Shown: positions 2,571 through 60,096, counted from the first letter of the stretch. The stretch: DNA of 64,000 bases from Candidatus Sulfomarinibacteraceae bacterium (GCA_963776765.1 CAVZOK010000009.1:60750-124749); one strand, 5' to 3'. Numbers and translations: made by a program. Notes: a model not told the origin generated them from the letters alone.

Positions 2571-2608
2571 GAATTCCGGAATTCGGAATTCGGAAATCGG
2601 AATTCGGA
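2571..2608. repeat. Heptamer tandem array (GAATTCG-type, ~5 units)
   Basis: gaattccggaattcggaattcggaaatcggaattcgga lies in the divergent region between amrS and the hydrolase gene. It is the reverse complement of the array at 14622-14655. Confidence 0.9.
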
Positions 2609-2687
2609 GCACCCGGAGACTCGCTAAGGCGAGCGATCAATCGAAAAGATCGAATAACCTCGTCAGGATGGAGGTTGCCCACACGAT

Positions 2688-3425
2688 ATGAGTTGCGCCG
2701 ATTTGCACCGAGACGTACCGCTGGACTTCGATTCGAGCGAGCTGAAACCGCCGTCACGTTGGCAGCTCTTGCGCGAGGGCAGGGTCGTCTTCGAGCGTCT
2801 GGCGCTTTCGGCGATGCTCGATAGGATTCGTTCCGAGGCACCTCGTGGGCACGGCGAGCCGATCATGGTGGTACCGGGATTCGCGACCGACGACAGCTGG
2901 ACGGCACGCCTCGTTGGTTTTCTGTCCTCGATCGGCTACCGAGCGGTCGGGTGGGGTCTCGGCCGAAACCACGGCAATGTGCCGAAGATGATTCCAGCCG
3001 TTATTGAACGAGCCGCGCGCTTGGCCGAGGCCGAAGAGCAGACCATTCGTTTGATCGGTTGGAGCCTCGGCGGCTATCTCGTTCGCGAGGCGGCGCGCGA
3101 TCGGCCGGATTTGGTCGAGCGCGTGATCACACTGGGCGCTCCTGTGGTCGGCGGACCGAAATACACGGCTTCCGCTCCGATGTACATCCGACGCGGATAT
3201 GACCTCGAGGAAATTGCCGCCGCCGTCGTCGAGCGCGAAACAAAGCCCATCGAGGTGCCGGTGTTCGCCATCTACAGCCGCTCCGATGGCGTCGTCGCTT
3301 GGCGCGCATGTATCGACCGATTTGACAATCCTCGCGTCGAGCATCACGAGGTCAGCTCGAGCCACCTCGGTCTGGTCAACTCGCCACGAGTCTTTCGCCT
3401 CGTCGCCGACCTGCTAACGCAGTAA
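2688..3425 (+). CDS. Alpha/beta-hydrolase (lipase/esterase-like)
   Basis: Nucleophile elbow GWSLGG, plus MVVPGF and SRSDGVV motifs typical of the fold. Start is uncertain. Confidence 0.7.
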   Translation: MSCADLHRDVPLDFDSSELKPPSRWQLLREGRVVFERLALSAMLDRIRSEAPRGHGEPIMVVPGFATDDSWTARLVGFLSSIGYRAVGWGLGRNHGNVPKMIPAVIERAARLAEAEEQTIRLIGWSLGGYLVREAARDRPDLVERVITLGAPVVGGPKYTASAPMYIRRGYDLEEIAAAVVERETKPIEVPVFAIYSRSDGVVAWRACIDRFDNPRVEHHEVSSSHLGLVNSPRVFRLVADLLTQ

Positions 3426-3564
3426 CGGGTGCCATAACGGGTGCCTAACGGGTGCCACGTTCACCATTGCACCATTGTCAGAAGGCACTCACTCCACGGA
3501 TCCATCGAGGGACAATGGTGCAATGGTGAACGTGGCACCCCGCAGGGTGGCACCCCGCAGGGTG
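3425..3564. repeat. Palindromic element with 29-bp perfect inverted repeat and repeat-built outer arms
   Basis: ggtgccacgttcaccattgcaccattgtc (3451-3479) is the exact reverse complement of 3511-3539, with a 31-nt loop. The arms extend as GGGTGCC tandem units on both sides. Confidence 0.9.
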
Positions 3565-3684
3565 ATAGCAGACATCCTGCCGACGTTGAGGAAGGACAGA
3601 TCCTGATCCTGAGATACCATTGGGGCATAGGATATTTTCCTGAAATCTCTTGATCTGGAGTGCGGATGGCGAAGGGAGAGACTC

Positions 3685-4236
3685 ATGGATGAAGAAATGC
3701 TGGAGCAAATCGAGGTTCCAGCCGAAGACGATCCCGCCCTCGATCCCGCAATGATCGAGGTGGCATTTCAGAAGTTCGAGCAAGAGCAGAGCATCGGCGG
3801 TGGGTTTCTGGCCGGTGGCGTGGCAGCTCTGGTGGGCGCCGGGGTGTGGGCCCTCGTCACCGTCTTGACCGGTTTTCAGATCGGGTTCATGGCGATCGGA
3901 GTTGGCTTCCTGGTCGGGCTCGCGGTGCAGTTCGCCGGCAAGGGCATCAATAAAATCTTTGGTGTTATGGGCGCCGCTCTGGCGCTGGTTGGCTGTCTCC
4001 TGGGGAATTATTTCACGGTGGTTCATTTCGTCGGTGAGGCAGAGGGTCGTGGATTCTTCGATACTCTGACCCGAATCAGTCCGGCCGCGGTTCCAGAATT
4101 GATGTCGATCACCTTCAGCCCGATGGACCTCATCTTCTACGGCATCGCCGTGTATGAGGGCTACAGACTGTCATTTCGCAAGATCACGCACGAGGAAGTA
4201 CAGGCCGCCATCACGGGCATTCCTGCTGGATTGTAG
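3685..4236 (+). CDS. Hypothetical membrane protein (Gly-rich TM helices)
   Basis: 183-aa ORF with an acidic N-terminus followed by 4 hydrophobic Gly-zipper-like segments. I recognise no family. Confidence 0.55.
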   Translation: MDEEMLEQIEVPAEDDPALDPAMIEVAFQKFEQEQSIGGGFLAGGVAALVGAGVWALVTVLTGFQIGFMAIGVGFLVGLAVQFAGKGINKIFGVMGAALALVGCLLGNYFTVVHFVGEAEGRGFFDTLTRISPAAVPELMSITFSPMDLIFYGIAVYEGYRLSFRKITHEEVQAAITGIPAGL

Positions 4237-4242
4237 AGGTCT

Positions 4243-4282
4243 GACGGCTAAACGGCTATACGGGTAGACGGCTATACGGCGG
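4243..4282. repeat. 8-mer tandem array (ACGGCTAT-type, ~5 units)
   Basis: gacggctaaacggctatacgggtagacggctatacggcgg begins 7 nt after the stop of 3685..4236. Confidence 0.85.
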
Positions 4283-4338: not shown

Positions 4339-4375
4339 CTGGTGGGCGGCAAATCCGAAATCCGAAATCCGAAAT
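4339..4375 (+). repeat. Box+tail element: CTGGTGGGCGG + (AAATCCG)x3.7
   Basis: Read directly. The box is identical to the one 47 nt downstream. Confidence 0.9.
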
Positions 4376-4385
4376 AGAAAGGGGG

Positions 4386-4430
4386 CTGGTGGGCGGAATT
4401 CCTAATTCCTCATTCCTAATTCCTCATTCA
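4386..4430 (+). repeat. Box+tail element: CTGGTGGGCGG + (AATTCCT/CATTCCT)x4.5
   Basis: Read directly. The last unit contains the fahA stop codon (4428-4430). Confidence 0.9.
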
Positions 4431-5711
4431 TCCCCGTGTCGGTAATAGCGTTCCAGTCACGTCACCGAAGCCGATCTTGACTCCGTCCCTTTCACACCAA
4501 CCCGTCATCGTGACGGTGTCGCCATCGGCCAGGAACTTCCGTTCCTCTCCGTTGGGAAGCTCGACCGTCTCGGTGCCTTTCCAACTCAGTTCGAGCATCG
4601 AACCGCGCTCGTGCTTCTCAGGCCCGCTGATGGTCCCAGAACCGTAGAGATCGCCCGGTCGCGCGTTGCAGCCATTGACCGTATGGTGGGCGAGCTGCTG
4701 ACAGATACTCCAGTACATGTATTTGAAGTTGGAGCTGGCGATGGTGGCCGGGTCGGTCATGGTCTCCGACTGCAGCGCCACTTCAAGATAAATGTCGTAG
4801 GCGCAGTCTCCTGGATTCTTGAGGTACTCGAGGGGTTCCGGATCTATTTGTGCCGGACCGGCGCAACGGAAGGGTTCGAGGGCGTCCATGGTGACCACCC
4901 ACGGAGAGATCGAGGTGCCGAAGTTTTTTCCGAGGAATGGCCCGAGGGGCACGTACTCCCATTTTTGGATATCACGAGCCGACCAGTCGTTGACGAGCAC
5001 CATGCCGAATATGTGCTCCATCGTGTCTGCGATCGGAACTGGTTCGCCAAGGGCGTTGCCTGGGCCGACAAAGAAGCCCATTTCGAGCTCAAAATCCATC
5101 AATCGGCTCGGCCCGTAAGTCGGACTGTCGGCATCGTCGGCCTTGGTCTGGCCCATGGGTCGGCGCACATCAGTGCCGCTCACAACCACCGAACTCGAAC
5201 GACCGTGGTAGCCGACCGGCAGATGCAGCCAGTTGGGCTGGAGGGCGTTGTCGGGGCCGCGAAACATAACCCCTACGTTGGTGGCGTGCTCCCGTGACGA
5301 GTAGAAATCGGTGTAGTCGCCGATTGCTGCCGGCAGCAGCATTTCGACTCCCGATCGGGGATAGAAGGCCGCCTTTCGGACGGCGGCGTCGTCACGCAAG
5401 GTAGGCTCGTCTGCACGGAGCAGTTGGGTCAGCCGGCCCCTCGCTTCGCGCCAGGCGGCGGGCCCGAGGGCCATGAAGGCATTGAGCGTCGGCTCTCGGA
5501 GAGCATCGCCGCCGCCGAGTTTGCGGCCGTTGAGCAGGCCTCGATCGACGAGGAGCGAAAGATCGAGGACTGCGTCACCGATCGCGACTCCGATCCGAGG
5601 TTTGAGCCCGGCCGCTGGCCGAAAGACCCCAAAGGGCAGATTGTGGATCGGAAAGTGCGAGTCGGCTGGAACGTCGACGAAGGAACGAAGATTGAGATCG
5701 ATGGTGGTCAT
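4428..5711 (-). CDS. fahA: Fumarylacetoacetase
   Basis: Near-colinear with eukaryotic FAH: [74 protein letters not shown]. The ATG at 5711 overlaps the upstream stop (ATGA). Confidence 0.92.
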
Positions 5712-6682
5712 TCCTGGTGGGCTCCTTCTCCCATGAATCCGAAGGCCCGCAGATCGTCGCGCGGCTCCGAAAAGCTGCAACTGCCAAAGCTCGTGAGAAC
5801 GGCTTGTCGGGCCTCGGCCACGAGGTCGGAGGTGGCCTCGGTATCGCGCCACGCGAGCCGATCCGGTGCGAGGACAAATGCCTCCGGATCAGTTTCGGCG
5901 ACGATATCGATCAGTTTGATCACAGGCAGATCATGGACGTACGCCAACGCCGAGGCCGCAAAAAGATTGATGAATCCGTGGACCATGGTGTCGAGCTCCG
6001 GGTCGTGGTGCCGGAATGGGTGGTGCAGCCCCTGGGTGGCCTTGAGAGGGACACCGGTTGCCCGACAGGTCGCGATCGCCGCCGCCACCGCCGTAACCTC
6101 GGGTATTGCAGCCGCATCGAGACCCCCGCACCGAATTTTGAGGCCGACGCGGTTTTGGTCGCCGGCCTTGCGGTCGGCATCGCGAACAGCCGCGGCTGCT
6201 GCCGGGAGTCGTGGCCGCCACTCTCCGAGCATTGAAACTTCGAAAAACGGTGTCAACGCGCGAGATCCGTTGCCGGTCAGCCGGAGTGAGGCCTGATTTA
6301 CCGCGACCGCCGCACCGCCGGCCTCCGGGAGGCGAACTTCGAAGGCATCCACCACGACCCGATCTGCAAGGCTTGTGGAGAACGCGGCCATGAGTTTTTC
6401 GTCCTGATCGGCTGCTTCGAGAAAGCTTTCGAGGTTGTCGCCACCGCGTCCCAACACCGAGACGGTGATCGGCAGCTGTGACGTGTCGGCTGCCGAAATC
6501 AGCGGTTCGAGCTCCTCGAGACGGCCCGCCGGACAGACAAAGCGTGCCAGCATCCAACCGTCATCTGACGAGCGGTGTTCGGCAAAACGAGCGAAGGCCT
6601 CGTCCATCGGCAACTTCGCCGGTGGAAAGAGCCCGGCATAATCGATGATGCCGCTGAAGAGGGATTTCGCGCACTCGTTCAT
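5708..6682 (-). CDS. Conserved hypothetical protein, translationally coupled to fahA
   Basis: 324-aa ORF with coding-like composition. Motifs [17 protein letters not shown] and [11 protein letters not shown] do not map to a family I can name. The stop overlaps the fahA start. Confidence 0.65.
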
Positions 6683-6786
6683 GGTTTTGCCCTGCTATTT
6701 CGTGAACTCGAGGCGGTATGGTATCACCCGCCGCTGGCTCCCGGGTTCTTCTTCCTCAGCTACAATGCCGCGGCGGAGGAGCCTCG

Positions 6787-9700
6787 ATGAATCAGAAATC
6801 GCGCAGATTTGTTATTTCATTTTTTGGCCTCGTTGCCATGACCGCCCTGGTTGGGCCGGCAACGGCAACTGAGGTTGCGGTCTCCAACCCCGGGTTCGAA
6901 CAGCTCGAGCCGACCGGCACGGTGGGTGGGTGGCGCCTGGCGACGGACGTCTCCAGCGATGGCTCCTCGTTCGGCGCCGACGGCGAGCAGGCCCACAACG
7001 GTGTCGGCAGCGCCAGGCTGGCGGTCAGGGGCCACGGCACGGTGACCGCCGAGTCCGATCCTGTCGCTCTCGAGGTTGGAAAGCTCTACCGGCTGAGCGG
7101 GTGGATCCGCACCGAGGGTGTGGTCTCGGACCCGATGTCCAAATACCCGACCGCCGTTCCGGCCTGCCTCACCATGGAGGCGCTGCCCTTCACCATCCAC
7201 TCGCCGTCAGTCGGTGGCGACTCCGACTGGTTCCGGGTGGATCTGCCGTTCATCGCCACCTCCGCCTCGGACCGGGTACGGCTCCACCTCGGCTACAACG
7301 GGACTGCCCGCGGCACCGCGTGGTTTGACGATGTGTGGATTGAAAAGGTCGAGGACATCAACGACTACATTCCTCTCGATACTGTCCGCTGGTCCGGCCC
7401 GGGTTTCCGCTACGACGACCAGGGTTGGATCTTCGTCCACATCGAGGGCGAACCCTATGAGCGTGGTTACCAGTACGGCTCGCTGATGCCAGACGAGATC
7501 GTCGAGTACATTCGCAAGCTCGGCGTGGTGCAGCACCGCGATGACCCGGAAGCGGGCTGGGACACGATACGCTTCGAAGCTGACGCGCTTTTCCTGCGCA
7601 AGTACGACCATGAGTATCTGACCGAGATGAAGGGCATCGCCGACGGCGCCGCTGCTGCCGGTGGCGAGGCATGGGAGAGGCCGATCGACCTCCGCGATAT
7701 CGTTGCCATCAACTCGGTGGTCGACATCGGCCAGCTTCACCGTGCGCTCGAGGTGACCCCCAATTCGCTCACGGGGCAGGCCTTTGTTGCTCCGGAGGAG
7801 GAGTTGGACATCGAGGTCGAGCAACACAAGTGCTCGGCGTTTGCCGCCACCGGCCCCGCGACCCGGGACGGCGACATCGTTTTCGGTCAGATTTTCATGT
7901 GGTCCGGCTACACCGGCATGCACTGGAACGTCATCACCGACGTGGAGCCCTCGGACGGATACCGGCTCGTCTACCACACGTTCCCGGGCGGCATCCACTC
8001 GGGGGCCGATTTCTACCTCAACGAAGCCGGCATCGCCTTTGGAGAGACCACGGTCTCGCAAACGCCATATGAGGCGAACTCCACCCCGCAATCGAACCGT
8101 GCCCGCAAGGCCGCCCAATATGCCGCTTCGATCGACGACGTCGAGCGGATCCTGTGGGAGAAGAACAACGGCATGTACACCAACGACTGGCCGATCGCCG
8201 ACTTCGAGACCGGCGAGGTGGCGATCCTGCTCCTCGGGACCCACAAAAAGAAAATGTGGCGGACCTCCGAGGACATGAATCCGTTCGGCACACCCGGCTT
8301 TCTGTGGGCCAACAACAACAACCGCGACCCCGAGGTCCGCAAGGAATACGTGGCCCAGCCGGATGACCGGCCCTTCGACCTCATGTTCTCGCCGTGGAAC
8401 CGGGATGTGGCCTTCAATGAGTTCTATCGCGAGAACAAGGGGAAGATCGACGCCAACGCAGGTGTCGCACTGTGGGCCTCGTCGCCCGTCAACCGCGCCC
8501 ACGCCTGCGATGGCAAGATCACTAACACCGAAATGGCCAACGAGATGGTGTTCCTTGCCCACCACGGCAAGGTGACGCTGCGTGAGAAGTTCCCCACCAA
8601 GGGCTGGCGCTACCTTCCGGCGGATCTGCCGGACGCCGACCCCCACCTCAGCCTCGGTTATTCGGTTGTGAGCCCGATCTTTGTCGCTGATCAGCTCAGG
8701 GCTGCTCGGGCCAACCGAAAAGCCAACATGAGGGAAGACGAGACACCGGACCTCGAGCTCGGGGCGGCGGCCGCGGCATTCGAAATCGACAAGAAGGACC
8801 TGTGGCGCGGCACGGTCGAGCCGGCGTCACCGGCCGAAAGCTGGTTCGTCAGCGCTACCGCCGCATACTGGCGGATTCTCGAGGCGCTCGACTTCGAAGA
8901 TCCAGAGGCCGCATCGGAGGAGCTGGCGAGCGAGCTCGCAGCTCTCGAGGCGCGTTACCTCTACACCGTTTCCCGCGAGCAGGATCTGCCGGCGCTCGAT
9001 GCTCACCGCGCGTACGATCGTTACGCCCCGTATCTGTTGCCTCGGATCAAGGGCACTTTCGCTCTTCACCAGTTGCGGTTGCTGCTGGGCAACGACGTCT
9101 TCTTCGATGTCATGGCGATGGTCCACGACCGCTACCGCGGGAGCGAGATGACAACGCAAGAGTTCACCTCGGTTGCCGAGGAGGTTTCGGGCCGCGAACT
9201 GGCGTCCTTCATGGACCAGTGGCTCAACCGCGTCGGCCTCCCTCATGTACGACCGAGCGCCAGCATCAAGCAAGCTCGCGGTGGGGGATGGGACCTGTCT
9301 GTTGGTGTCGAACAGAGCGGTGAACTCTATCGGTTTGTGACGCATCTCGAGGTCGAGGCTGGAGGCGATCGTTTCCTCCATCGGATCGAGGTAGTAGGGA
9401 AACGGGGCATCTTGCTCCACTTCGACGAGCGCCCGACGCGAGTTGTCTTCGACGCTTTCCATGATCTCCCGGTCGAACATGGAAATTTCTACGAGTGGCG
9501 CAACCTGATCGACGACTTTCACGACACCGTCATCGTCTACGGCACGGCGCGCCAGATCGAGGCCAACCACACCATGGCGCGGCGTTGGCAGGAGAAGGTT
9601 GCCGACACCTACATCGAGATCCTGCCGCCGCTGGTCAAGGACTCAGAGGTTGCCGAGAATCAGGTGCCCAACCAGGATCTGATGGTGATGGGGACTCTGA

Positions 9701-10002
9701 AGGATAACTATTTCTTCAGCCACATGCCGGAGAACATCCCGGTGCGCTTCGGTCGCAACCACTTCGAGTGGATGGGGGAGACCTACGGCGAGCCTGACGA
9801 TGGGCTCTTCCTGGTCGTGCCAAATCCCTGGAACCCGGAGCGGGTGATGTATGTCCTCGCCGCCAACTCGGGCATGGAGCTCTACGACATGACCGAGACC
9901 TATCACCGGGACATTCCACAGTGGGCCCGTTTCAAGGGCGACGAGATCGTCGACCGGGGTTACTACGACCGTCCGGGCTTTGTCATCGAACTGGAGGACT
10001 GA
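6787..10002 (+). CDS. Secreted multidomain protein: CBM-like N-domain + peptidase C45 (Ntn acyltransferase/hydrolase)-like core + M1-aminopeptidase-like C-terminal region
   Basis: GGAGG RBS and ATG at 6787. Signal peptide MNQKSRRFVISFFGLVAMTALVGPATA. C45-like EQHKCSAFAATG nucleophile context. C-terminal KGTFALHQLRLLLGNDVFF...ELASFMDQWLNRVGLP resembles the M1 family, but I saw no HExxH. Confidence 0.7.
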   Translation: MNQKSRRFVISFFGLVAMTALVGPATATEVAVSNPGFEQLEPTGTVGGWRLATDVSSDGSSFGADGEQAHNGVGSARLAVRGHGTVTAESDPVALEVGKLYRLSGWIRTEGVVSDPMSKYPTAVPACLTMEALPFTIHSPSVGGDSDWFRVDLPFIATSASDRVRLHLGYNGTARGTAWFDDVWIEKVEDINDYIPLDTVRWSGPGFRYDDQGWIFVHIEGEPYERGYQYGSLMPDEIVEYIRKLGVVQHRDDPEAGWDTIRFEADALFLRKYDHEYLTEMKGIADGAAAAGGEAWERPIDLRDIVAINSVVDIGQLHRALEVTPNSLTGQAFVAPEEELDIEVEQHKCSAFAATGPATRDGDIVFGQIFMWSGYTGMHWNVITDVEPSDGYRLVYHTFPGGIHSGADFYLNEAGIAFGETTVSQTPYEANSTPQSNRARKAAQYAASIDDVERILWEKNNGMYTNDWPIADFETGEVAILLLGTHKKKMWRTSEDMNPFGTPGFLWANNNNRDPEVRKEYVAQPDDRPFDLMFSPWNRDVAFNEFYRENKGKIDANAGVALWASSPVNRAHACDGKITNTEMANEMVFLAHHGKVTLREKFPTKGWRYLPADLPDADPHLSLGYSVVSPIFVADQLRAARANRKANMREDETPDLELGAAAAAFEIDKKDLWRGTVEPASPAESWFVSATAAYWRILEALDFEDPEAASEELASELAALEARYLYTVSREQDLPALDAHRAYDRYAPYLLPRIKGTFALHQLRLLLGNDVFFDVMAMVHDRYRGSEMTTQEFTSVAEEVSGRELASFMDQWLNRVGLPHVRPSASIKQARGGGWDLSVGVEQSGELYRFVTHLEVEAGGDRFLHRIEVVGKRGILLHFDERPTRVVFDAFHDLPVEHGNFYEWRNLIDDFHDTVIVYGTARQIEANHTMARRWQEKVADTYIEILPPLVKDSEVAENQVPNQDLMVMGTLKDNYFFSHMPENIPVRFGRNHFEWMGETYGEPDDGLFLVVPNPWNPERVMYVLAANSGMELYDMTETYHRDIPQWARFKGDEIVDRGYYDRPGFVIELED

Positions 10003-10024: not shown

Positions 10025-10058
10025 GGGCTATACGGCTATACGGCCGTACGGCTAGACC
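10025..10058. repeat. 8-mer tandem array (GGCTATAC-type)
   Basis: gggctatacggctatacggccgtacggctagacc starts 23 nt after the stop at 10002. Confidence 0.85.
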
Positions 10059-11127: not shown

Positions 11128-11226
11128 GAACCGCTAAGAACGTCAAAGACCGCAAAGGCCGCCGCAAAGAAGTTCCTTTACATAGGTCAGAGATGATCTT
11201 TGCGCTCTTGGCGATCTTTGCGGTTC
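11128..11226. repeat. Palindromic element with arms built from CGCAAAG-type units
   Basis: The left arm gaaccgctaagaacgtcaaagaccgcaaaggccgccgcaaagaag faces the right arm atctttgcgctcttggcgatctttgcggttc. Confidence 0.8.
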
Positions 11227-11230
11227 AACT

Positions 11231-11271
11231 GGATGGGTGGGGGAGCCGTTAGGCCGTTTAGCCGTAGGGCC
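11231..11271 (+). repeat. Box+tail element: GGATGGGTGGGGG + (AGCCGTTn 8-mers x3)
   Basis: Read directly. It lies 24 nt outside the pfk stop codon. Confidence 0.85.
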
Positions 11272-11294: not shown

Positions 11295-13550
11295 TCAAGT
11301 CGAAGTCTTCGCGCTTCCCGACGGTCCAGTCTGAGCGAGCACCCGTGCGATCGGACGAAGATCCATCCACCACTGTGATTTTGGCCGCTGGTGTTCGGAG
11401 TCGACCTGACGGCGCAGAGTCTCGAGTTCGGAGAACTCGATCTTGCCGTCGTTGAGTCCGATCGCGAGCGCCGCGTCGGTGCCCGCCTCAGCCTCGTCGA
11501 TCAAGCGCTCGACGCAACGTTTGGCAAGACGGGTGGCGAGGATGCGGTCGAAGGGGCTGGGGTCGCCGCCCTGCTGGAGGTGGCCGAGGATCGCTTGCCG
11601 GACGTCGAAGAACTCGCCCCCCTCTTCCTCAAAGAGCGAAACCATGAACTGGGTGTCGTAGCAGGCGTTGGCACCCTCGTTGCGGATCATGAGGCCGAGG
11701 CGTTTGCCGTTCCGGAAACCTTCGATGAGGTCCTGGACGTCTTTCTGGAGGTCGGCGATGGTGACCCCCTCCTCGTTGAGATAGACCCGTTCGGCGCCGC
11801 TCGCGATGCCCGCCATGAGGGCGAGATAGCCGCAGTAACGACCCATCACCTCGACCACGAAGCAGCGCCGAGAGGCGACTGCCGACTGCTTGATCTTGTC
11901 GACAGCTTCGACGATCGCGTTGAGCGCAGTATCGGCTCCGACCGAAAGCTCCGACCCCGGGAGGTTGTTGTTGATCGTCGCCGGCATACAGATGAGAGGG
12001 ATATTGAAGGCCGGAAACGCCTCACGTTTGCGGGCCAGACGGAGCGAAGCGTCATAGCCGGACCAGCCGCCGATCATGAGGATGCCGTCGATCGAGAGAT
12101 CCTCGATATTGCGCGCGATTGCGTAGAAGTCTTTGCCGCTTGGAATCGTGCGGTTGATGCCGAGCTCGCAACCGCCGGCTGTGGTCCAGCCACGCACGCT
12201 CATCCAACCGAGCTCCTCGATATCACCGTCAATCAGCCCTTGAAATCCGCCACGAATACCGAGCATCTGGTGCCCCTCGTCGAGAGCGAGCCGCACGGCG
12301 GCGCGGGTGGCGGTGTTCATGCCCGGCGCAGGTCCGCCCGACGAGACGACGGCGAGGCGGAGCCTGCGCTGACCCGAGCTTGGGGGATTCGGAAGTGACC
12401 GCAGCAGGGTTTGCAGAGTGTCGATGTTGTCCGAGAAGCTGCCGCCTCGCAGTCGGAGGGCCTCGTTGGCGTCTTTGTTGATGATCGCCGCATAGACCTC
12501 GGCGGTGGCCTCGACACATTCGGCCAGGGGCTTCCGGGTGATCCGGTTGTGCTGCACGCCCACCAGTTGGGGTATCGATTCCGGGCCGGCCGCCATCACT
12601 TCGTGAACCGCGGCGTGGCCGAGAAGGGTCCCCATAAGGCGATCGTAGGCCGACGGTGCGCCGCCGCGCTGGACGTGGCCGAGGATGGTGACCCGAACCT
12701 CCTCTTCCATCCGTTCTTCGAGGACCTGTCGGACGCGTTCGGCGGTGATCGGTTGACCTTCGCTGTCGACCGCACCCTCGGCGACAATGACGATGCTGTC
12801 GCGACGCCCAGCCTTGCGACCGGCGCGCAACCGCCGCGGGAGGATCTCGGTCCACGAGCCACCGGGCAACGGCGCTTCCGGGATGAGGACAGCGTCGGCG
12901 CCAGTTGCGAGGCCGCTCATCAGCGCCAGATAGCCGCAATGGCGGCCCATGACCTCGACCACGAAGGTGCGCTGGTGGCTTGCCGCGGTGGCGCCGATGC
13001 CGTCGACTGCCTCGGCGATCCGGTGGAGCGCGGTATCGGCTCCGATCGACATATCGGTTCCGGCCATGTCGTTATCGATCGAAGCGCCGATGCCGGCAAG
13101 CGAAAGGTAACTGTGCCGTTCGGCCGCCTCGTTCTGAATACGGCCCTGCTCCAAGAGCTGAGCAATCAGCCCGGGCCACTCGCGATGGAGGAGATCGGCG
13201 GCGGTCAAACTTCCGTCGCCACCCATCACGATCAGGCGGTCGATTCCTTGTTCGACGAGGTTCTGGGCGGCGCGAAGTCGACCCTCGCGTTCGCGGAATT
13301 CGTCGCAACGGGCGGTTCCGATGACGGTGCCGCCCAGGTGCATGATGCCGCCGGCCGCATCCCAATCCATCGACTTGAAGGCGTCGCCACCCTCAACGAG
13401 TCCCCGGTAGCCCTCGCGGATGGCAACAGCTTCCACGCCCTCTTCAAGGGCCGTCCGTACCGCCGCGCGTAGGGCGGCGTTCATACCGGGCGCATCACCA
13501 CCACTGGTCAGGATGCCGAGCCGGTTTGTTTGTTGGTTCAGATCGTTCAT
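11295..13550 (-). CDS. pfk: 6-phosphofructokinase, tandem-duplicated (two PFK domains, ~750 aa)
   Basis: N-half GILTSGGDAPGMNAALRAAV...MGGDGSL...GHVQRGG. C-half AVVSSGGPAPGMNTATRAAV...IGGWSGY...GHLQQGG. ATG at 13550 (TTG at 13553). Confidence 0.9.
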   Translation of the reverse strand: MNDLNQQTNRLGILTSGGDAPGMNAALRAAVRTALEEGVEAVAIREGYRGLVEGGDAFKSMDWDAAGGIMHLGGTVIGTARCDEFREREGRLRAAQNLVEQGIDRLIVMGGDGSLTAADLLHREWPGLIAQLLEQGRIQNEAAERHSYLSLAGIGASIDNDMAGTDMSIGADTALHRIAEAVDGIGATAASHQRTFVVEVMGRHCGYLALMSGLATGADAVLIPEAPLPGGSWTEILPRRLRAGRKAGRRDSIVIVAEGAVDSEGQPITAERVRQVLEERMEEEVRVTILGHVQRGGAPSAYDRLMGTLLGHAAVHEVMAAGPESIPQLVGVQHNRITRKPLAECVEATAEVYAAIINKDANEALRLRGGSFSDNIDTLQTLLRSLPNPPSSGQRRLRLAVVSSGGPAPGMNTATRAAVRLALDEGHQMLGIRGGFQGLIDGDIEELGWMSVRGWTTAGGCELGINRTIPSGKDFYAIARNIEDLSIDGILMIGGWSGYDASLRLARKREAFPAFNIPLICMPATINNNLPGSELSVGADTALNAIVEAVDKIKQSAVASRRCFVVEVMGRYCGYLALMAGIASGAERVYLNEEGVTIADLQKDVQDLIEGFRNGKRLGLMIRNEGANACYDTQFMVSLFEEEGGEFFDVRQAILGHLQQGGDPSPFDRILATRLAKRCVERLIDEAEAGTDAALAIGLNDGKIEFSELETLRRQVDSEHQRPKSQWWMDLRPIARVLAQTGPSGSAKTST

Positions 13551-13599
13551 CAATTCATTGCCTCAGTCATTCTCATCGAGCGGGCATTCTAACCCGGCT

Positions 13600-14343: not shown

Positions 14344-14562
14344 CGTCGTCGTCACACCCCGATTGTGCCATGACCCATCTCCGTGCCCGGATGATGCATC
14401 GGGCCGAGTAGCTTGCACGCGCCCTTCTGCCGTCGCGCTACCCGAGAGGATGCCAGGCACGCCGATTCGCCGACACATCCAAGCGACGTCGTTCACTCAG
14501 TGGCGAATCGGGAGCCAGGCACCTCCGGTCAAGGCGCTTGCCTCGCAGAATGAAACGCGGAT

Positions 14563-14606
14563 GGGTGGGTGGCAAATCCGAAATCCGAAATCCGAAATCC
14601 GAAATT
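14563..14606 (+). repeat. Box+tail element: GGGTGGGTGG + (AAATCCG)x4.7
   Basis: Read directly. Confidence 0.9.
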
Positions 14607-14610
14607 CCGC

Positions 14611-14655
14611 GGGGTGGATGGAATTCCGAATTCCGAATTCCGAATTCAGAATTCG
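14611..14655 (+). repeat. Box+tail element: GGGGTGGATGG + (AATTCCG)x4.5
   Basis: Read directly. It ends 19 nt before the HAD start codon. Confidence 0.9.
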
Positions 14656-14673
14656 TCTCGCTATACTCCCTCA

Positions 14674-15447
14674 ATGACATCACCAGCCCTCAAGGCCCTC
14701 CTCCTCGATCTCGACGACACACTCATCGACAACGCGATGGACACGTTCATCCCGGCGTACTTCCGCGCTCTGGAGGCTTTCGTGGCCGGGGTGGTGGAAC
14801 CCGGGAGATTCATCGAAGAGCTCCTGAAGTCGACTCGGGCGATGGATGGCAACGACGGCACCGGACCGAGCAATGAAGAAGTCTTCGCCGCCGCGTTCTA
14901 CCCGGCGCTCGGGGTGCCACGGGAGGAGATGGAACCGCTGTTGGCGCGCTTCTACAATGAGGCATTCCCCCGGCTCGAGCCGTTGATCGGCAAGCGCCCG
15001 GCGGCGCCGAAAGTCGTCGAGTGGGCGAAGGCTCGCAAGCTGCAGGTCGTGATCGCCACCAACCCACTCTTCCCACGCACAGCCATCGAGCAGCGGATGG
15101 CGTGGGGCGAGGTAGGAGTGGATGGTTTCGACTATGAGCTCGTCACTTGCTACGAAAACAGCCACGCCACCAAGTCGAGCCCGGCCTACTTTCGGGAGAT
15201 TGTCGATTTTCTGGGTCGACGGCCAGAGGAGTGTCTGATGGTTGGCGATAACTGGGGGTGGGACGTTGTCTGCGCAGGCCAGGCAGGAATTCCGAGCTTC
15301 TGGATTGCGTCGGACAGAAATCCTGCACCGGAGCCCGCCGTCGAGACTGTTGGACAGGGGGACCTTGATGCATTCCTGGCCGCCGCGGATGCGGGGAACC
15401 TCGAGGAAGAGTGGGCCCGGATAGTGGCCGAGAGGCGCTCGGTATGA
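14674..15447 (+). CDS. HAD-superfamily hydrolase
   Basis: Motif I LLDLDDTL, motif III/IV region VGDNWGWDV. ATG at 14674 follows the repeat arrays. The stop overlaps the next start (ATGA). Confidence 0.8.
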   Translation: MTSPALKALLLDLDDTLIDNAMDTFIPAYFRALEAFVAGVVEPGRFIEELLKSTRAMDGNDGTGPSNEEVFAAAFYPALGVPREEMEPLLARFYNEAFPRLEPLIGKRPAAPKVVEWAKARKLQVVIATNPLFPRTAIEQRMAWGEVGVDGFDYELVTCYENSHATKSSPAYFREIVDFLGRRPEECLMVGDNWGWDVVCAGQAGIPSFWIASDRNPAPEPAVETVGQGDLDAFLAAADAGNLEEEWARIVAERRSV

Positions 15448-17297: not shown

Positions 17298-17317
17298 GAA
17301 ATGAGGAATTGCCACCC
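17283..17317 (-). repeat. Box+tail element (reverse orientation): (AGGAATG-type)x4 + GCCACCC
   Basis: aggaatgaggaatgagaaatgaggaattgccaccc overlaps codons for ...RNEE and the TGA (17295-17297) of the preceding gene. Confidence 0.9.
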
Positions 17318-17324
17318 TGTTTCA

Positions 17325-17344: not shown

Positions 17345-17441
17345 AGTCGGCCTCCGGCCGACGCGTCGCACCGTCGCCTGCGGGCGGCTCATGGCCTCCT
17401 CCTTCAGATGAGGCCTGATCCGCCTCAGCAGCCGCCGGCGG

Positions 17442-46678: not shown

Positions 46679-46709
46679 GACGGCGCTATTGTTCCATAGC
46701 GGCGGCAGG

Positions 46710-48485: not shown

Positions 48486-50226
48486 GGACCGCTACCACCC
48501 TGGGTCCCATCGCTGAACCCCAGCGCCGCGGATCGCCGATACCGGTGAATTCTCCGGTCTCGGGATCGTAGCCAATTGCGTTGACGCCACCGAACTTGGT
48601 CACTGAGGTGTCTTCAGGTGCGTCCGGTGGCGGGTACCGCAGGACGGTCATGTTCTCGAAGCCCATTTTTTGGAGGGCCAAAACGTCCTCCTCGGAGATC
48701 GGGTCGACAACCTCAATATGAGCCCTCTTCCACGACATGCCGCCCCACACGACGCGAGGTGCGGTGACGGCGTCGCGTACGCTCATCCCCCGGTCCACCA
48801 TATTGCTGACAACGTCGGCGACGAGTCCGGGGATTCGGTTGCTGCCCGGAGTGCCGAGTGCGGCGAAAAACACTCCATCCTTGAGGACGATTGTGGGCGC
48901 GATATCGGTTGAACACGGGCGATTGGGCTGAAGGTAGCCTGGGCACTGCGGTTTGTCGACATTGAAGGATTCGAGGAAGCTGTTATACGGAAAACCAAGG
49001 CCCAGCGTGGCGACCTTTGCACCAAAAGATCGGCTGAGGGTCTGGGTCATCGAAACGACGTTGCCCTGGCTGTCAGCGACCGAAACATGGGTGGTGCTCT
49101 CCCCAGGAGTTTGGCAGTCGGGATTGGCAGGGGAGGTCAATATTTCTTGCGGAATCGCTTTGCCTGGAAGGATGAGGGTGGCCCGATCCCTTGCGTGTGC
49201 CTTGCTCAGAGGATCGGAGCCAGGGCTCCTTTGCCGATTGCCGGCCTTTTGAGCATCCGCGGCGGCGATCCGAAATGTGTCGAGGAAGACATGGTGCCGT
49301 TCAGCCGAGTCCTCGGCAAGAAAATCACTCGGATAGGTTTCGAGGAGATTGAGGCCCACCACGAGACCGGCGCCGCCGCTTGGTGGAGGCAGAGTGTAGA
49401 CATCGAAGCCGCGATATGACGTGTGAAGTGGATTGACCTCGCGGGGGCGCACCCGCATGAGATCGATCTTGCGTACAAATCCTCCGTTGCGGATCATGTC
49501 GGCCTCGATATCATCGGCGATGCTGCCACGGTAGAAACTCTGCACACCCTCGGAGGCGATCCGTCGAAGGGTGCTGGCGAGGTCCGGTTGACAATGACGA
49601 TCCCCTGGGCTGCCAACCGTGCGACCGTCTTCCATTGCAATGAGAGACACGTAATGCGATGAATTTATGATGTTCTCGTAGTAACGGTGGGTCCATTTGA
49701 TCTGAATTCTACTGAGCGGGTAGCCCTGCTCGGCGAACTCAATGGCGGGCTGCAGGAGGGCCGCCATCTCCATGGTTCCGTAGCGTGCTCTCGCATGTTC
49801 GAGGGTCGCCAACGTTGTTGGCGTGGCGACGGCCTCGTAACCGTAGGTTCGGCCGCTTTCCTTGAATCTCCTGAACTTGTTGATGTCTATCGCAATCGGT
49901 GATTGAGAGGTCCCATCAATAGCAAGCGTTCGACCGTCCGCGAGATGGATGACCATGCTCGTCGTTCCACCGATTCCTGATGCATCCGAATCCACAACGC
50001 TCAGAGTCAGGGCGGCCGCGACCGCCGCGTCGATGGCATTTCCGCCATTCTCGAGGATCTTGATTGCGGTCTCTGTGGCTTCGTTTGATCCGGTTGCGAC
50101 CATGCCAAAGTCTGACCGTGCTTCGGGTACGCAGAGTTCTGGGGGCAGGCGATCGTCATGACAGGGGGAGGCGCCTGAGAGCACACCAACCACCAACATC
50201 GCTGCTGTGGCGATGGTCAACCGCAT
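48478..50226 (-). CDS. ggt: Gamma-glutamyltransferase paralogue 3
   Basis: GGNAIDAAVAAALTLSV. GESTTHVSVADSQGNVVSMTQTL. ATG at 50226 gives the signal peptide MRLTIATAAMLVVGVLSGASPC. The ORF is open to GTG 50262. Confidence 0.9.
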   Translation of the reverse strand: MRLTIATAAMLVVGVLSGASPCHDDRLPPELCVPEARSDFGMVATGSNEATETAIKILENGGNAIDAAVAAALTLSVVDSDASGIGGTTSMVIHLADGRTLAIDGTSQSPIAIDINKFRRFKESGRTYGYEAVATPTTLATLEHARARYGTMEMAALLQPAIEFAEQGYPLSRIQIKWTHRYYENIINSSHYVSLIAMEDGRTVGSPGDRHCQPDLASTLRRIASEGVQSFYRGSIADDIEADMIRNGGFVRKIDLMRVRPREVNPLHTSYRGFDVYTLPPPSGGAGLVVGLNLLETYPSDFLAEDSAERHHVFLDTFRIAAADAQKAGNRQRSPGSDPLSKAHARDRATLILPGKAIPQEILTSPANPDCQTPGESTTHVSVADSQGNVVSMTQTLSRSFGAKVATLGLGFPYNSFLESFNVDKPQCPGYLQPNRPCSTDIAPTIVLKDGVFFAALGTPGSNRIPGLVADVVSNMVDRGMSVRDAVTAPRVVWGGMSWKRAHIEVVDPISEEDVLALQKMGFENMTVLRYPPPDAPEDTSVTKFGGVNAIGYDPETGEFTGIGDPRRWGSAMGPRVVAVRE

Positions 50227-50379
50227 GGGACGTGCACCGAACGGACGCAACCGGAAATCCACGGCCTTTCTGCAGATCGCTCCGTGACCGCGCCTTGTGG
50301 CTGCTGGTCACCGAGCGACCGGACATTCAGTCTGTTCATTGTACGACGGTCTCCAGCTGCCGATCGACGGGCTGACGCC

Positions 50380-50443
50380 TTGACAAAATTTCAATCAGAA
50401 TGTATTAATACACTATGACATTAATAAACTAGAACATTAATCC
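50380..50443 (+). promoter_or_regulatory. AT-rich promoter/operator island: TTGACA-17-TATTAA plus three ATTAAT boxes at 16-bp spacing
   Basis: TTGACA at 50380-50385 and TATTAA at 50403-50408. The palindrome GTATTAATAC (50402-50411) overlaps the -10. ATTAAT occurs at 50404, 50420 and 50436. The island lies between divergent ggt and gntR genes. Confidence 0.55.
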
Positions 50444-50469
50444 AATTGGGAATTGAAACGGAGCCTTGG

Positions 50470-50847
50470 GTGACCATCGAATTCAAACTCGACCTCAAAA
50501 GCGGCGTTCCCTTCTACCGCCAGGTGATCGACCACGTAAAGGCCGCCATCGCCACCGAAAGCCTCTCTCCAGGCGACCGCTTGCCCACCGTGAGGCAACT
50601 CGCGGTTGACCTTTCCATCAACCCGAACACCGTGAGCCGCGCCTATACCGAGCTCGAACTGACGGGCCTGGTGGAGACCCAAATGGGTTCCGGCACCTTC
50701 GTCGGCAGCCGACGGGTGAAGCCAGATGATATCGAGCGTCGGAGGGTGCTCGACCAGCTCTGTCAGGAGTTTCTATCGCGGGTATCGACCCACGGCTTTA
50801 CCCTCGACGACCTTCTTCAGAACCTCGAGCAGCGCCGGAAGCGCTGA
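50470..50847 (+). CDS. GntR-family transcriptional regulator (YtrA subfamily, short effector domain)
   Basis: PFYRQVIDHVKAAIATESLSPGDRLPTVRQLAVDLSINPNTVSRAYTELELTGLVET is a winged HTH. GGAG-N6-GTG start at 50470. Confidence 0.85.
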   Translation: MTIEFKLDLKSGVPFYRQVIDHVKAAIATESLSPGDRLPTVRQLAVDLSINPNTVSRAYTELELTGLVETQMGSGTFVGSRRVKPDDIERRRVLDQLCQEFLSRVSTHGFTLDDLLQNLEQRRKR

Positions 50848-55205: not shown

Positions 55206-55308
55206 GGATGCTCGATACTTGATACTCGATACTCGATAAAAGCCAGGCTTGTTTTTGAGGGTGGGTTGGGGATCGAAAATCGAGAATCGAGAATCGAGAA
55301 TCGGATGC
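55206..55308. repeat. Palindromic heptamer-armed element with internal GAGGGTGGGTTGGGG box, between the two RND cistrons
   Basis: The left arm (GATACTC-type, 55206-55237) faces the right arm (ATCGAGA-type, 55272-55308), with about one mismatch per unit. Confidence 0.9.
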
Positions 55309-58617: not shown

Positions 58618-58664
58618 TGATCAGGCCCCGTTCCGGGGGACAAGGATTCTCGACAGGAGGACCA

Positions 58665-59819
58665 TCAGCCCTCCTGCTCGACCGGTTCCGGCGCGGATTC
58701 GGCATCTTCATCCGTCATGACGCGAACCGTTGCGCCGTCAGAAAGAGCCGGCGCTCCGACGATGATGACGCTCTCACCCGGTGTGATGTCGACGGAGGGG
58801 TCTGCGGCCGCGGCGATTTCAATGCGATCACCGGTTTCGAAACCGAGCTCGACCTCGATTTGCTCGACCTTCGTACCTTCCTCTGTGAGGCGGTAGAGGT
58901 GCCATCGGCGCCCCTCGGCAACCAGCGCCGAACGGGCGACCACCAGGGCGCTTGCGTGTGTGTCAGTAACGATGTCGACCCGGACAAAGGCGCCCGGCCT
59001 GAGCCCGGACCCTGCTTCAACTGCGACGGTGACCTTGACGGTGCCAGTAGCAGGGTCTACCGCCGGGGCGATGCGCTCTATGATCGCACCTGCCGCGCCG
59101 CCGGTTGCGTCAGCTGTCAAACGCACCTCCTGACCGGGCTCCAGCCGGGTCACGTGGCGTTCGGGGATGTTGATGTCGGCGTAGAGGGGCTGGAGATCGG
59201 CGAGGTCGTAGACCGGGGTGCCGTCGGAAACGGTGGCGCCGACGTCGAGGTGGCGGGTCACTACGATGCCTGCGATGGGGGCCCGGATGACGGTGCGGTA
59301 GAGTTCCAGATCGGCGAGCTCGAGGGCATGAGCGGCATCCTCCGCATCGCGGCGGCTCGCTTCGTACTCGTCGACGCTCACCAGTCCGCGCTGATAAATG
59401 TCGGACAGCCGCTCGTACTCTCTCCGTGCGGTTTCCTCGGTCGTTCGGGCTCGCGCGGCGGCGATCTTTTGCTCGTCGTCCTCGAGATAGGCGAGCGGTT
59501 GCTCAGCCCCGACCCGATCGCCTTCTTCGACGGAGAGACGACGAACGACACCGCGGGTGCGAGCAATGACCGTTGCCTGCCGGTCGGCGCGAAGGGTTGC
59601 GGAGGTCGAGTAGAGGGAGGAAATAGGTTCGCGAACAACCTCGCCTGCGCGCACTGCGATGGCTGGTTCTTCCTTTTTGCCATCTCCGTTTTGCCCGTTC
59701 CCGTTCGTCCCGTGGCCGTTGGCTTCACCGCCGCAGCCGGTTGTGAAAACCGACACGAAAATGGCGACGAGTGCAGTCGCATTGCGTACAAACAGAAAGC
59801 TTGGCCTGACCTGGATCAT
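58665..59819 (-). CDS. RND efflux periplasmic adaptor (membrane-fusion protein), lipoprotein
   Basis: Lipobox FTTGCGG. Contains coiled-coil hairpin and beta-barrel regions typical of the HlyD_D23 family. Confidence 0.85.
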   Translation of the reverse strand: MIQVRPSFLFVRNATALVAIFVSVFTTGCGGEANGHGTNGNGQNGDGKKEEPAIAVRAGEVVREPISSLYSTSATLRADRQATVIARTRGVVRRLSVEEGDRVGAEQPLAYLEDDEQKIAAARARTTEETARREYERLSDIYQRGLVSVDEYEASRRDAEDAAHALELADLELYRTVIRAPIAGIVVTRHLDVGATVSDGTPVYDLADLQPLYADINIPERHVTRLEPGQEVRLTADATGGAAGAIIERIAPAVDPATGTVKVTVAVEAGSGLRPGAFVRVDIVTDTHASALVVARSALVAEGRRWHLYRLTEEGTKVEQIEVELGFETGDRIEIAAAADPSVDITPGESVIIVGAPALSDGATVRVMTDEDAESAPEPVEQEG

Positions 59820-59910
59820 CAGCGTTCATTCCTTTGTTTCACGGATCGGTCCGGATCTCTCCGGATGGCCCCTCGATAGTAGGTGAAAATTGCGTGGGAG
59901 TTGCTTTATT

Positions 59911-59959
59911 CCCCGCCGCCAACCCAACCACCCGATACTAGATCCTAGATGCTGGATCC
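59911..59959 (-). repeat. Box+tail (reverse orientation): CCCCGCCGCCAACCCAACCACCC + (GATNCTA heptamers)
   Basis: Read directly. Further CCCACCC boxes occur at about 59966 and 60001. Confidence 0.8.
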
Positions 59960-60059
59960 GTCTACCCACCCAACAGACGGCTCTACGGGTTCAGCTGCCA
60001 GCCCACCCCCGGCTTTTCGACTCAAGCTCCTGATAATGCCATTGCAATGCCTGGGCGCT

Positions 60060-60096
60060 CCGCCGTACGGCCGCATAGCCGTAAAGCCGTAGAGCC
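60060..60096. repeat. 8-mer tandem array (CCGTANGG/CATAGCCG-type)
   Basis: ccgccgtacggccgcatagccgtaaagccgtagagcc. Confidence 0.8.

Follow-up and report, generated by a model that had tools for sequence, protein, structure and literature searches.

What are the short tandem arrays that lie between the genes of Candidatus Sulfomarinibacteraceae bacterium, and what keeps them alike? In a 64,000-nucleotide (nt) stretch of its genome (GCA_963776765.1 CAVZOK010000009.1:60750-124749; referred to here as the window and numbered from its first letter), an initial annotation made from the sequence alone had described more than 25 intergenic sites with tandem copies of a 7-9-nt unit, and had read them as a single element family with a constant head and a locus-specific tail. 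The arrays instead constitute several lineage-specific families of short dispersed intergenic repeats. The element of the main family is ~46 nt long and consists of a G-quadruplex (G4)-like head, GGGNGGGNGGGYGG, fused at fixed polarity to a tail of 4.6 AAWTCCN units that spans 32-34 nt.

Arrays were called with Tandem Repeats Finder (TRF) at periods of 7-9 nt and at least 2.5 copies, made non-redundant, and compared with 30 dinucleotide-preserving shuffles of the window. There are 25 such arrays, or 37 when periods of 14, 16, 18 and 21 are included, against 0-3 (typically ~1) per shuffle, and nearly every one is intergenic according to a codon-usage gene model. The abundance first reported is thereby borne out, and the unit types listed were found in their places. 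A pooled set comprising the window and 17 related loci (396 kb in total) holds 225 arrays, 135 of them in the non-coding DNA that makes up 18% of the sequence. Intergenic regions longer than 60 nt are occupied in ~60% of cases overall (62% of co-directional, 61% of convergent and 57% of divergent regions). Head-plus-tail elements reach 15.9 per 100 kb in Sulfomarinibacteraceae-like loci and 0.6 per 100 kb in loci of other Acidobacteriota. An assembly artefact was rejected, as the architecture recurs at syntenic positions in 16 independent assemblies of metagenome-assembled genomes (MAGs).

The unit types group into a few families, namely AAWTCCN, ATCNAGN, GCCGTNNN, CGCAGATNN/CGCAAAGNN and CTCTGTG, every one of which is found at several loci. 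The tails are thus not locus-specific, and one 42-nt stretch of head and tail is present at unlinked loci with 97.6% identity. Among the period-7 arrays of the pooled loci, length has a sharp mode at 32-34 nt, corresponding to four full units and 4-5 nt (38 of 100), and AAWTCCN tails keep a fixed start and end register of (AAWTCCN)4 followed by AAWT(C), or ~4.6 units.

The exact box GGTGGGYGG, which had been proposed as the consensus of the head, is indeed enriched: it occurs 8 times in the window against 1.7 expected, a count that 0 of 100 shuffles reach, and 6 of the 8 adjoin an array. At 26162, listed initially as a box-plus-array site, the box is 45 nt away from the array. The statement that most arrays lie next to a box goes too far. 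By a strict criterion with a null rate of 5%, boxes accompany 53 of the 135 intergenic arrays in the pooled loci, and their frequency depends on period (47 of 100 at period 7, 6 of 25 at period 8 and 0 of 10 at period 9). AAWTCCN arrays were oriented by tail sequence alone before the head was scored as at least 8 G within the 14 nt directly 5' of the tail; 33 of 48 have it there, and 1 of 48 on the 3' side. The constant head joined to a periodic tail therefore stands as a composite of fixed polarity for the heptamer families. The head is mostly missing from the 8- and 9-mer families, and the arrays are not one family: at least four unit families have a common layout, with siblings of the AAWTCCN family (ATCNAGN, GCCGTNNN, CGCAGATNN and others) mostly lacking a head.

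In AAWTCCN arrays the head has the position profile G3-N-G3-N-G3-Y-G2, with four conserved G-tracts and three variable single-base loop positions, which suggests that the requirement on it may be structural rather than sequence-specific. The strict G4 head motif has 22 matches in the 396 kb; 15 are intergenic, at a density about tenfold that in coding DNA, and 12 are followed immediately by an array 3' of them. As the motif is largely found at array flanks, the head seldom occurs without a tail. A profile hidden Markov model trained solely on the elements of relatives finds 11 members in the window, every one of them in the interval from 2.5 to 28 kb. With respect to the likely direction of replication, the heads of the window show no strand bias (8 on the plus and 6 on the minus strand).

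These properties raise the possibility of a polar element centred on the G4 itself, in which the head, helped by melting of the AT-rich tail, would fold in an antisense RNA or on the strand that is template for the ending gene, and would serve as a roadblock or have a regulatory effect. Taken further, the idea would have the adjoining tandem repeats themselves arise from polymerases that stall at the G4. The conserved tracts and variable loops would suit this role, as would the near confinement of the strict motif to array-flanking sites and the location of the tail, which is always 3' of the G-rich strand and hence on the approach side of a polymerase copying that strand; related Xanthomonas arrays also form G4 in vitro (PMC4692102). 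However, many heads carry only GG in at least one tract, the head is base-paired with a C-rich partner when elements are inverted, the 8- and 9-mer families manage without a head, and identical tails at unlinked loci weigh against purely local generation. A G4-centred element is, on balance, quite unlikely. One head, GAGGGTGGGTTGGGG at 55257-55271, presumably resembles the Neisseria pilE G4 motif closely, which offers a lead rather than a test. The pilE G4 promotes gene conversion, an activity that would suit the homogenisation of copies, but it is a single locus tied to antigenic variation, whereas here an extrapolated hundreds of copies lie at housekeeping gene boundaries.

Polarity extends to the neighbouring genes. 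Of 52 elements, 23 have a stop codon no more than 30 nt from the tail end, and 2 have one that close to the head end; the tail points toward the gene and the head inward. After stops, the sense strand carries NGGAWTT, the purine-rich strand of the tail, together with a C-rich box of 10-15 nt, in agreement with the C-rich sense strand described initially. A tail that faces a start codon has AAWTCCN on the sense strand and ends 19-56 nt before the start, a gap that is promoter-sized. In the window ~15 stop codons are overlapped by an array or have one within ~30 nt, which matches the at least 15 gene stops counted before.

An element may stand alone, follow another in direct tandem or face one head-to-head in an inverted doublet. 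Inverted partners accompany 16 of 53 elements (~30%) and invariably lie on the head side; the resulting tail-head-spacer-head-tail doublets fold as hairpins of 30-45 bp. Direct-tandem composites of the form head-(AAATCCG)n-head-(AATTCCN)n occur three times in the window. Hairpin strength is given as z relative to shuffled sequences, with fold energy in kcal/mol. The four inverted pairs listed initially are all present, and three fold far beyond shuffles (21217/21298, 55207/55272 and 33119/33168; z -4.4 to -9.4), but the fourth, 41199/41286, does so only marginally (z -2.4, equalled by 3 of 200 shuffles). Two additional pairs were found at 11130/11195 (z -5.9) and 3423/3564 (z -7.7). About one mismatch per unit between arms, as had been reported, is seen in the 55207/55272 pair.

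Several known identities were considered and rejected. CRISPR does not apply, as initially stated, because the units are head-to-tail without spacers, and no cas domains were found among the scanned open reading frames (ORFs). The elements have no Rfam match at gathering or lenient thresholds, and the scans of five relatives were negative. An all-frame stop signal fails as well, since all three frames are closed by only 18 of the 53 sense-strand arrays, and 20 of them close no frame. Like intrinsic terminators, the doublets place stable hairpins a few nt past stop codons, but no T-run follows them, their 30-45-bp stems are far longer, most elements are unpaired, and elements are also present between divergent genes. 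Classical terminator-like sites are not enriched in consensus scans (8, 12 and 20 against 13, 15 and 15 expected), and the only clear one in the window, consistent with the single terminator noted before, follows groEL.

A different kind of gene-end signal would be a Rho-utilisation (rut) or factor-loading site, at which the periodic YC tail or the C-rich box would recruit Rho, a cold-shock protein, S1 or an Hfq-like protein. Every AAWTCCN unit contains a TC/CC dinucleotide, units combine a constant core with variable linker positions, a C-rich box is on the sense strand after stops, and direct tandems have unusually little structure (z +0.7 and +2.2). The optimal ligand of Escherichia coli Rho is itself a tandem repeat, and CspB binds heptamer repeats according to work cited in PMC4679880. 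That ligand, however, is 60 nt long, at 10 nt for each of 6 protomers, and its YC dinucleotides have to be separated by a spacer no shorter than 7 nt, whereas the tails have a 7-nt period over 32-34 nt. The strand following stops is purine-rich rather than YC, the YC strand usually being antisense, and the C-rich box is only 10-15 nt long. Each of the many unit sequences would moreover require its own specificity, and divergent regions are equally occupied. The elements are a poor fit to a rut site, the Rho-dependent signal suggested initially is not upheld, and factor loading in general is very improbable.

The history of the elements can be followed at metH (17637-21212). The MetH of the window is 72-88% identical to that of its best relatives, MAGs named Candidatus Sulfomarinibacter(aceae), Thermoanaerobaculia or Thermoanaerobaculales, and ~60% identical to that of other Acidobacteriota. 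On the 3' side of the gene, most Sulfomarinibacteraceae-like loci show the order stop, purine-strand tail, C-rich box, unconserved spacer, G-rich head and tail, and in 7 genomes full hairpins fold there at -45 to -89 kcal/mol (z -4 to -12.5). Three arm types are found at this site (AATTAGG, ATTTCGG and the 8-mer GAGGGCCT), and both arms are always of one type; the arms of one genome agree at 19-24 of 24 positions, compared with 9-18 of 24 across types. Among relatives the spacers are unconserved while the tails are intact. In L031, the closest relative of the window, the arm type differs from that of the window and the arrays mix intermediate units. On the upstream side of metH, at least 10 genomes have an array that begins at the preceding gene's stop codon or takes it in. 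Its units are one substitution apart (GAATGAG, GAATTAG, GAATTCG and GGATTTC), and the first is often GAATTAG, which provides the TAG stop. The comparison implies that array positions are old and maintained, that tails evolve in concert and that spacers drift freely. Such concerted evolution fits the slippage-type mechanism proposed initially for the tails.

The recurrence of unit types at unlinked loci is likewise confirmed, with copies at 82-97.6% identity in the window. Over 42 nt, positions 4388-4429 match 21289-21330 at 97.6% identity, with an alternating TA/TC pattern that is identical over 32 nt; 4341-4422 and 14564-14647 share 82% identity over 84 nt, and 33114-33234 and 34160-34279 share 82% over 122 nt. 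Near-identical copies at unlinked loci indicate that some between-locus copy process acts too. The arrays at 17324-17354 and 17443-17472 are apparently one array split by an insertion of ~100 nt (17343-17442) that is absent in L031. This GC-rich segment, which has a small hairpin of its own (GTCGGCC-TCC-GGCCGAC) and lies inside an ATTTCGG array, may itself be another small element that has inserted there. A second dispersed intergenic motif, CGCGTGCGGCGGAGGTGCC, is found in some relatives (L004, L005, L007, L035, L039 and L042) at up to 9 copies per 23 kb. Examples in L004 are at 9673, 9715, 9790, 13654 and 13716, and at least two L004 copies lie directly 3' of a G-rich head, in tail position. 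This motif has no copy in the window and no Rfam match.

Dispersed copies of this kind are reminiscent of repetitive extragenic palindromic (REP) sequences, bacterial interspersed mosaic elements (BIMEs) and REP doublets forming hairpins (REPINs). In the main rival explanation, the elements are REPIN-like non-autonomous mobile DNA: the doublet would be the mobile unit, copied by a REP-associated tyrosine transposase (RAYT)/IS200-type or other single-strand transposase encoded elsewhere, and single elements would be decayed halves with no host function. The likeness suggested initially holds for layout, as both are short dispersed extragenic repeats with inverted doublets that form hairpins at gene 3' ends and with several lineage-specific families. 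Mobility would also account for the near-identical unlinked copies, including the identical TA/TC alternation over 32 nt, the co-existence of several families confined to one lineage and the even occupancy of all intergenic types. It is further consistent with the joint switch of arm type at an orthologous site, which is expected if a whole doublet is replaced, with the constant head-side location of the partner, and with the ~100-nt insertion that splits one array. Unlike REP sequences, however, the single head-plus-tail unit is not a palindrome and folds no better than shuffles, its arms are tandem repeats, and neither a target-site duplication nor a conserved GTAG-like end was seen. Synteny of the positions extends to genomes that share just 72-88% MetH identity, and the single-substitution steps among unit variants at one site, together with the mixed arrays of L031, suggest change in place. 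A tblastn search with the RAYT of L043 found no match in the window or the fetched loci of relatives (~0.9 Mb of Acidobacteriota), and the REPs of L043 are unrelated to the elements. Mobile DNA of the REPIN type is unlikely. The L043 gene itself, from a Holophagae relative, encodes a RAYT-like Y1 transposase (166 aa, PF01797) inserted between the MTHFR-fusion gene and metH, and is bordered on both sides by GGCGCGCATCYTATGCGCGC REP hairpins (GCGCGCAT-type REPs) rather than by head-plus-tail elements (L043 region 9140-9930).

A closer counterpart exists in other phyla. Rehm et al. (2015) described intergenic heptamer arrays with the units GGGAATC in Xanthomonas and GGGGA(C/T)T in Nostoc, the function of which is unknown (PMC4692102). 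The Xanthomonas arrays prefer ~four units, typically 28 nt, a preference attributed by the authors to the need for four G-tracts. Past a stop codon (at 0-50 nt, with some overlaps) the coding strand is the G-rich one, and ahead of starts it is the non-coding strand. There are 70-75 convergent inverted pairs, 21-67 nt apart among the rows for Xcc, and arrays are found at the same intergenic positions in two species, with varying length and sequence, beside housekeeping genes such as groES-groEL and the atp genes (PMC4692102). The arrays studied here are alike in their tandem NGGAATN-type heptamers, intergenic excess, ~four-unit preference, strand geometry at stops and starts, convergent inverted pairs, conserved positions and housekeeping neighbours. 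The window units AGGAATT, CGGAATT and CGGATTT are close relatives of GGGAATC, but have GG only and no G3 tract; the array is then no classical G4 motif in itself, and the four-G-tract explanation of Rehm et al. cannot hold for these tails. They differ further in the separate G-rich head on the opposite strand at fixed polarity, in the co-existence of 7-, 8- and 9-nt unit families, and in their phylum, Acidobacteriota.

Among the metagenome (GGGAATC)n arrays in the matches listed for which both flanks were readable, 0 of 75 had a C-rich or G-rich box in the matching position, which makes the head a lineage-specific addition. The elements are consequently a head-bearing variant, in a different phylum, of described and functionally unexplained gene-end heptamer arrays. 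The initial opinion that they belong to no described repeat family is therefore right as regards the head, which is new, and wrong as regards the heptamer arrays, for which similar unit, size and geometry were known (PMC4692102). No paper on repeats in Thermoanaerobaculia was found in the literature. Perfect (GGGAATC)4 arrays are also common in environmental contigs of 34-73% G+C (L048-L127), with at least 120 stretches matched and many of the arrays directly following stop codons; the Xanthomonas-type array is therefore far more widespread than the two original genera.

Looser relatives are the short tandemly repeated repetitive (STRR) heptamers of cyanobacteria, the TAACTGA repeats of Beggiatoaceae and the long simple-sequence repeats of 5-11-nt units catalogued by Mrazek. 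TAACTGA arrays consist of one unit and lie mainly just upstream of start codons (MacGregor, 2015; PMC4679880). All three are short tandem heptamer-type repeats that are mainly intergenic and phylogenetically sporadic, and a slippage origin and post-transcriptional roles have been proposed for them (PMC4679880); they differ in having no reported conserved head, strong doublet architecture or 32-34-nt modal length. According to Mrazek (2007), as cited in PMC4679880, heptamer arrays are the commonest class of long simple-sequence repeat in many bacteria and are ascribed to polymerase slippage. This commonness, along with the drift of unit sequences between relatives, would be compatible with a neutral by-product of slippage, that is, simple-sequence repeats with units of 5-11 nt that have neither function nor dispersal mechanism. 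Such an origin was already disfavoured and is improbable in view of the sharp length mode, the fixed association and polarity of the head, the conservation of positions beside randomised spacers, the matching of arms to each other and the identical copies at unlinked loci.

The explanation favoured here, which has about an even chance of being correct, is that the elements are a copy-propagated structural mark of transcription-unit boundaries. It builds on a head-and-tail composite of fixed polarity and length, doublets that form hairpins, persistence at orthologous sites, near-identical dispersed copies and restriction to a single lineage, all of which are observed. Replication slippage would keep units uniform within an array, template switching between arms would keep the two arms of a doublet alike, and gene conversion or a transposition-type process would do the same for copies at different loci; the last two kinds of exchange would explain both the identical unlinked copies and the joint switches of arm type. 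Elements would be transcribed with the flanking genes, and the structural marking of transcription-unit boundaries would then be their most likely cellular effect. As long hairpins in RNA or DNA, doublets could halt transcription or protect the ends of transcripts, and heads could serve as G-rich/C-rich structure-forming blocks beside an easily melted AT-rich tail. The boundary elements would in this way stand in for the classical terminators that are not enriched in the window.

A number of observations weigh against a boundary mark. Divergent regions, which contain no gene 3' ends, are equally occupied (57% compared with 62% and 61%), so that a terminator-only role fails. About two thirds of the elements have no inverted partner, and the heads of these partnerless elements have no complementary sequence nearby beyond the control level. 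The hairpins lack a U-tract, and the two direct-tandem composites that were folded form less structure than their shuffles (z +0.7 and +2.2). No dispersal enzyme was found by tblastn with the RAYT in the window and the relatives' loci (~0.9 Mb). The outward polarity of the tail and its fixed length are not derivable from the proposed mechanism, the functional steps of which are all inferred from sequence. The elements could, in addition, persist because a selfish repeat is constantly homogenised and not because the host benefits.

The elements of the window and the features associated with them are collected in Table 1.

Table 1. Repeat elements in the window, ordered by position. Repeat numbers are given as x; rc, reverse complement.
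Position	Strand	Feature	Context and folding
2571-2608	-	GAATTCC/GAATTCG-type heptamer tail, 5.3 units, weak head	Divergent intergenic region
3423-3564		Palindrome; arms of tandem 11-12-nt and 15-nt units with a common 9-nt core; also holds 8-mer pairs	Begins at stop of gene 2688-3425; -81.2 kcal/mol, z -7.7
4244-4280		8-mer array (ACGGCTAT/ACGGCTAA)x4.6, no clear head	8 nt past stop of gene 3685-4236
4340-4375	+	Head CTGGTGGGCGG + (AAATCCG)x3.6	First half of direct-tandem composite
4382-4429	+	Head GGGGCTGGTGGGCGG + (ATTCCTA/ATTCCTC)x4.6	Tail overlaps stop of fumarylacetoacetase gene 4428-5852(-)
10026-10054		8-mer array (GGCTATAC)x3.6	24 nt past stop of gene 6718-10002
11130-11222		Palindrome with 9-mer arms (ACCGCAAAG x3.6 / GATCTTTGC x3.1)	-42.4 kcal/mol, z -5.9
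11230-11265	+	Head GGATGGGTGGGGG + 8-mer tail (AGCCGTTA)x2.8	Tail 30 nt from stop of phosphofructokinase gene 11295-13553(-)
14559-14606	+	Head GGATGGGTGGGTGG + (AAATCCG)x4.6	
14611-14654	+	Head GGGGTGGATGG + (GAATTCC)x4.9	Tail 20 nt before ATG 14674 of HAD hydrolase gene, just upstream of TATACT
17282-17317	-	Head (GGGTGGCA) + (ATTCCTC)x4	Array (+ strand) gives last codons and stop of gene 15411-17297
17324-17354	-	(AAATCCG)x2.6 tail, headless	
17443-17472	-	Head GCGGGTGGGTGG + (GAAATCC)x2.4	
21217-21264	-	Head GGGGCGTTGGATGGG + (AATTCCT)x4.6	Left arm of metH 3' hairpin, 4 nt past metH stop
21284-21330	+	Head GGGAGGGTGGGCGG + (CATTCCT/AATTCCT)x4.6	Right arm of metH 3' hairpin; -61.2 kcal/mol, z -7.5
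26208-26270		(ATCGAGC/ATCTAGC)x9, no adjoining head	4 nt from stop of gene 26274-27902(-)
27936-27981	+	Head GGGAGGTTGGCGG + (AATTCCT)x4.6	Tail 2 nt from stop of rubrerythrin gene 27983-28504(-)
28687-28721		8-mer array (GGCTATAC)x4.4	Divergent region upstream of typA
33119-33194		Palindrome with 9-mer arms (CGCAGATNN x2.8 / rc), C-rich box before	-52.7 kcal/mol, z -9.4
34110-34157	-	Head GGTATGGGCGGGC + (GAATCGA-type)x4.9	Overlaps stop of gene 33313-34119(+)
34165-34237		Second CGCAGATNN palindrome copy	C-rich box in common with element 34110-34157
36325-36350		Atypical order: stop, C-rich box (GGCCGCCCAC), then (CAGGATT)x2.6	
37211-37238	+	(ATCCTGC)x4 array	31 nt from stop of gene 37269-37856(-)
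41199-41316		8-mer inverted doublet (GCTATACG x4.6 / ATAGCCGC x3.9), headless	Divergent region; -51.1 kcal/mol, z -2.4, marginal
42805-42853	-	Head GGGGTGGGTGATGG + (CTCTGTG-type)x3.8	Tail 13 nt from stop of gene 41401-42792(+)
43636-43676	+	Head GGGTGGAATGCC + (CTCTGTG)x3; inverted counterpart of 42805-42853, ~800 nt apart	Tail 12 nt from stop of gene 43689-44867(-); nested 42-nt inverted copies 42859-42900 / 43493-43534
55207-55303		Inverted doublet: (GATACTC)x4.6, spacer, head GAGGGTGGGTTGGGG, (ATCGAGA)x4.6; one mismatch per unit	Between two AcrB-family genes; -29.4 kcal/mol, z -4.4
59934-59980	-	Head GTTGGGTGGGTAGAC + (GGATCCA/ATCTAGG-type)x3.7; extra G-rich stretch beyond tail	Upstream of gene 58665-59819(-)
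60062-60096		8-mer array (GCCGTAAA-type)x4.4	Downstream of the classical groEL terminator at ~60100-60135

The surrounding DNA is ordinary chromosomal sequence of ~60% G+C from a Thermoanaerobaculia-class acidobacterium. In addition to metH, its housekeeping and other genes include a duplicated-domain phosphofructokinase, typA, groES-groEL, an MTHFR fusion gene, two AcrB-type pumps and three gamma-glutamyltranspeptidase paralogues in tandem (44864-50262). An unusual fusion of a receiver domain (response regulator) to LpxC is encoded at 21387-22682. The sequence TTGACC-N17-CACACT lies ~9 nt before the ATG of this gene (21336-21389) and is kept in L001, L003 and L030; it is promoter-like and would yield a leaderless or near-leaderless mRNA. 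The same would be true of the promoter-like TATACT at 14662-14667, 7 nt before the ATG at 14674. A 16-nt AT-rich direct repeat (ATTAATAAACTAGAAC x2.4) at 50404-50441, directly upstream of a GntR-family regulator gene (50446-50847), looks like an operator and falls outside the repeat families.

Acido-Lenti-1 is the sole Rfam family matched in the window, with three matches away from the repeat elements, which is consistent with an origin in Acidobacteriota. Two inverted matches ~130 nt apart, 34326-34372 (-) and 34499-34545 (+), of which one exceeds the gathering score and the other falls slightly short of it, make a large hairpin adjoining a CGCAGATNN palindrome. Others accompany an 861-nt segment that is duplicated at 96.4% identity (547-1405 and 36356-37206). 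Both copies of the segment contain a 150-aa ORF (795-1247 and 36595-37047), and a match is found just upstream of each on the opposite strand (669-715 and 36470-36516). The ORFs were considered as transposases and rejected as such; the proteins belong to PF05635 (23S rRNA intervening-sequence/four-helix-bundle). They are flanked by another repeat type with CAGCGNC/CTGNCG-like units (TRF periods 6, 13 and 19) at 599-630, 1277-1352 and 37075-37152, which is also seen downstream of metH in the relative locus L008.

Heptamer arrays at gene ends have been catalogued for years in Xanthomonas, cyanobacteria and Beggiatoaceae without a function being found. The elements described here provide a natural control, as they retain the type of unit, the preference for four units, the placement at gene ends and the inverted pairing but carry their G-tracts outside the array, in a separate head on the opposite strand. 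That the four-unit preference persists with the G-tracts outside the array argues against four units being needed for an array G-quadruplex. The 14-nt head, the 32-34-nt tail and their polarity are defined parts that can be tested separately, and the metH site offers an orthologous series in which the arms of a hairpin change type jointly. If ~60% of intergenic regions are filled, with an extrapolated several hundred copies in each genome, the consequences would reach the annotation of gene ends, the assembly of short reads, and operon and terminator prediction in Thermoanaerobaculia MAGs. The boldest reading is that head and tail form a novel bacterial boundary module, in which a compact G-quadruplex- or i-motif-forming head and a periodic, easily melted AT-rich tail would delimit transcription units as a polar structure in DNA or RNA, or else a novel non-autonomous mobile element whose enzyme would recognise a G4 and whose tail would be produced or reset through stalling-induced slippage. 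This remains a doubtful proposition; if true, the four-unit rule would be independent of a G4 within the array, and the case of the Xanthomonas and Nostoc arrays would be reopened.

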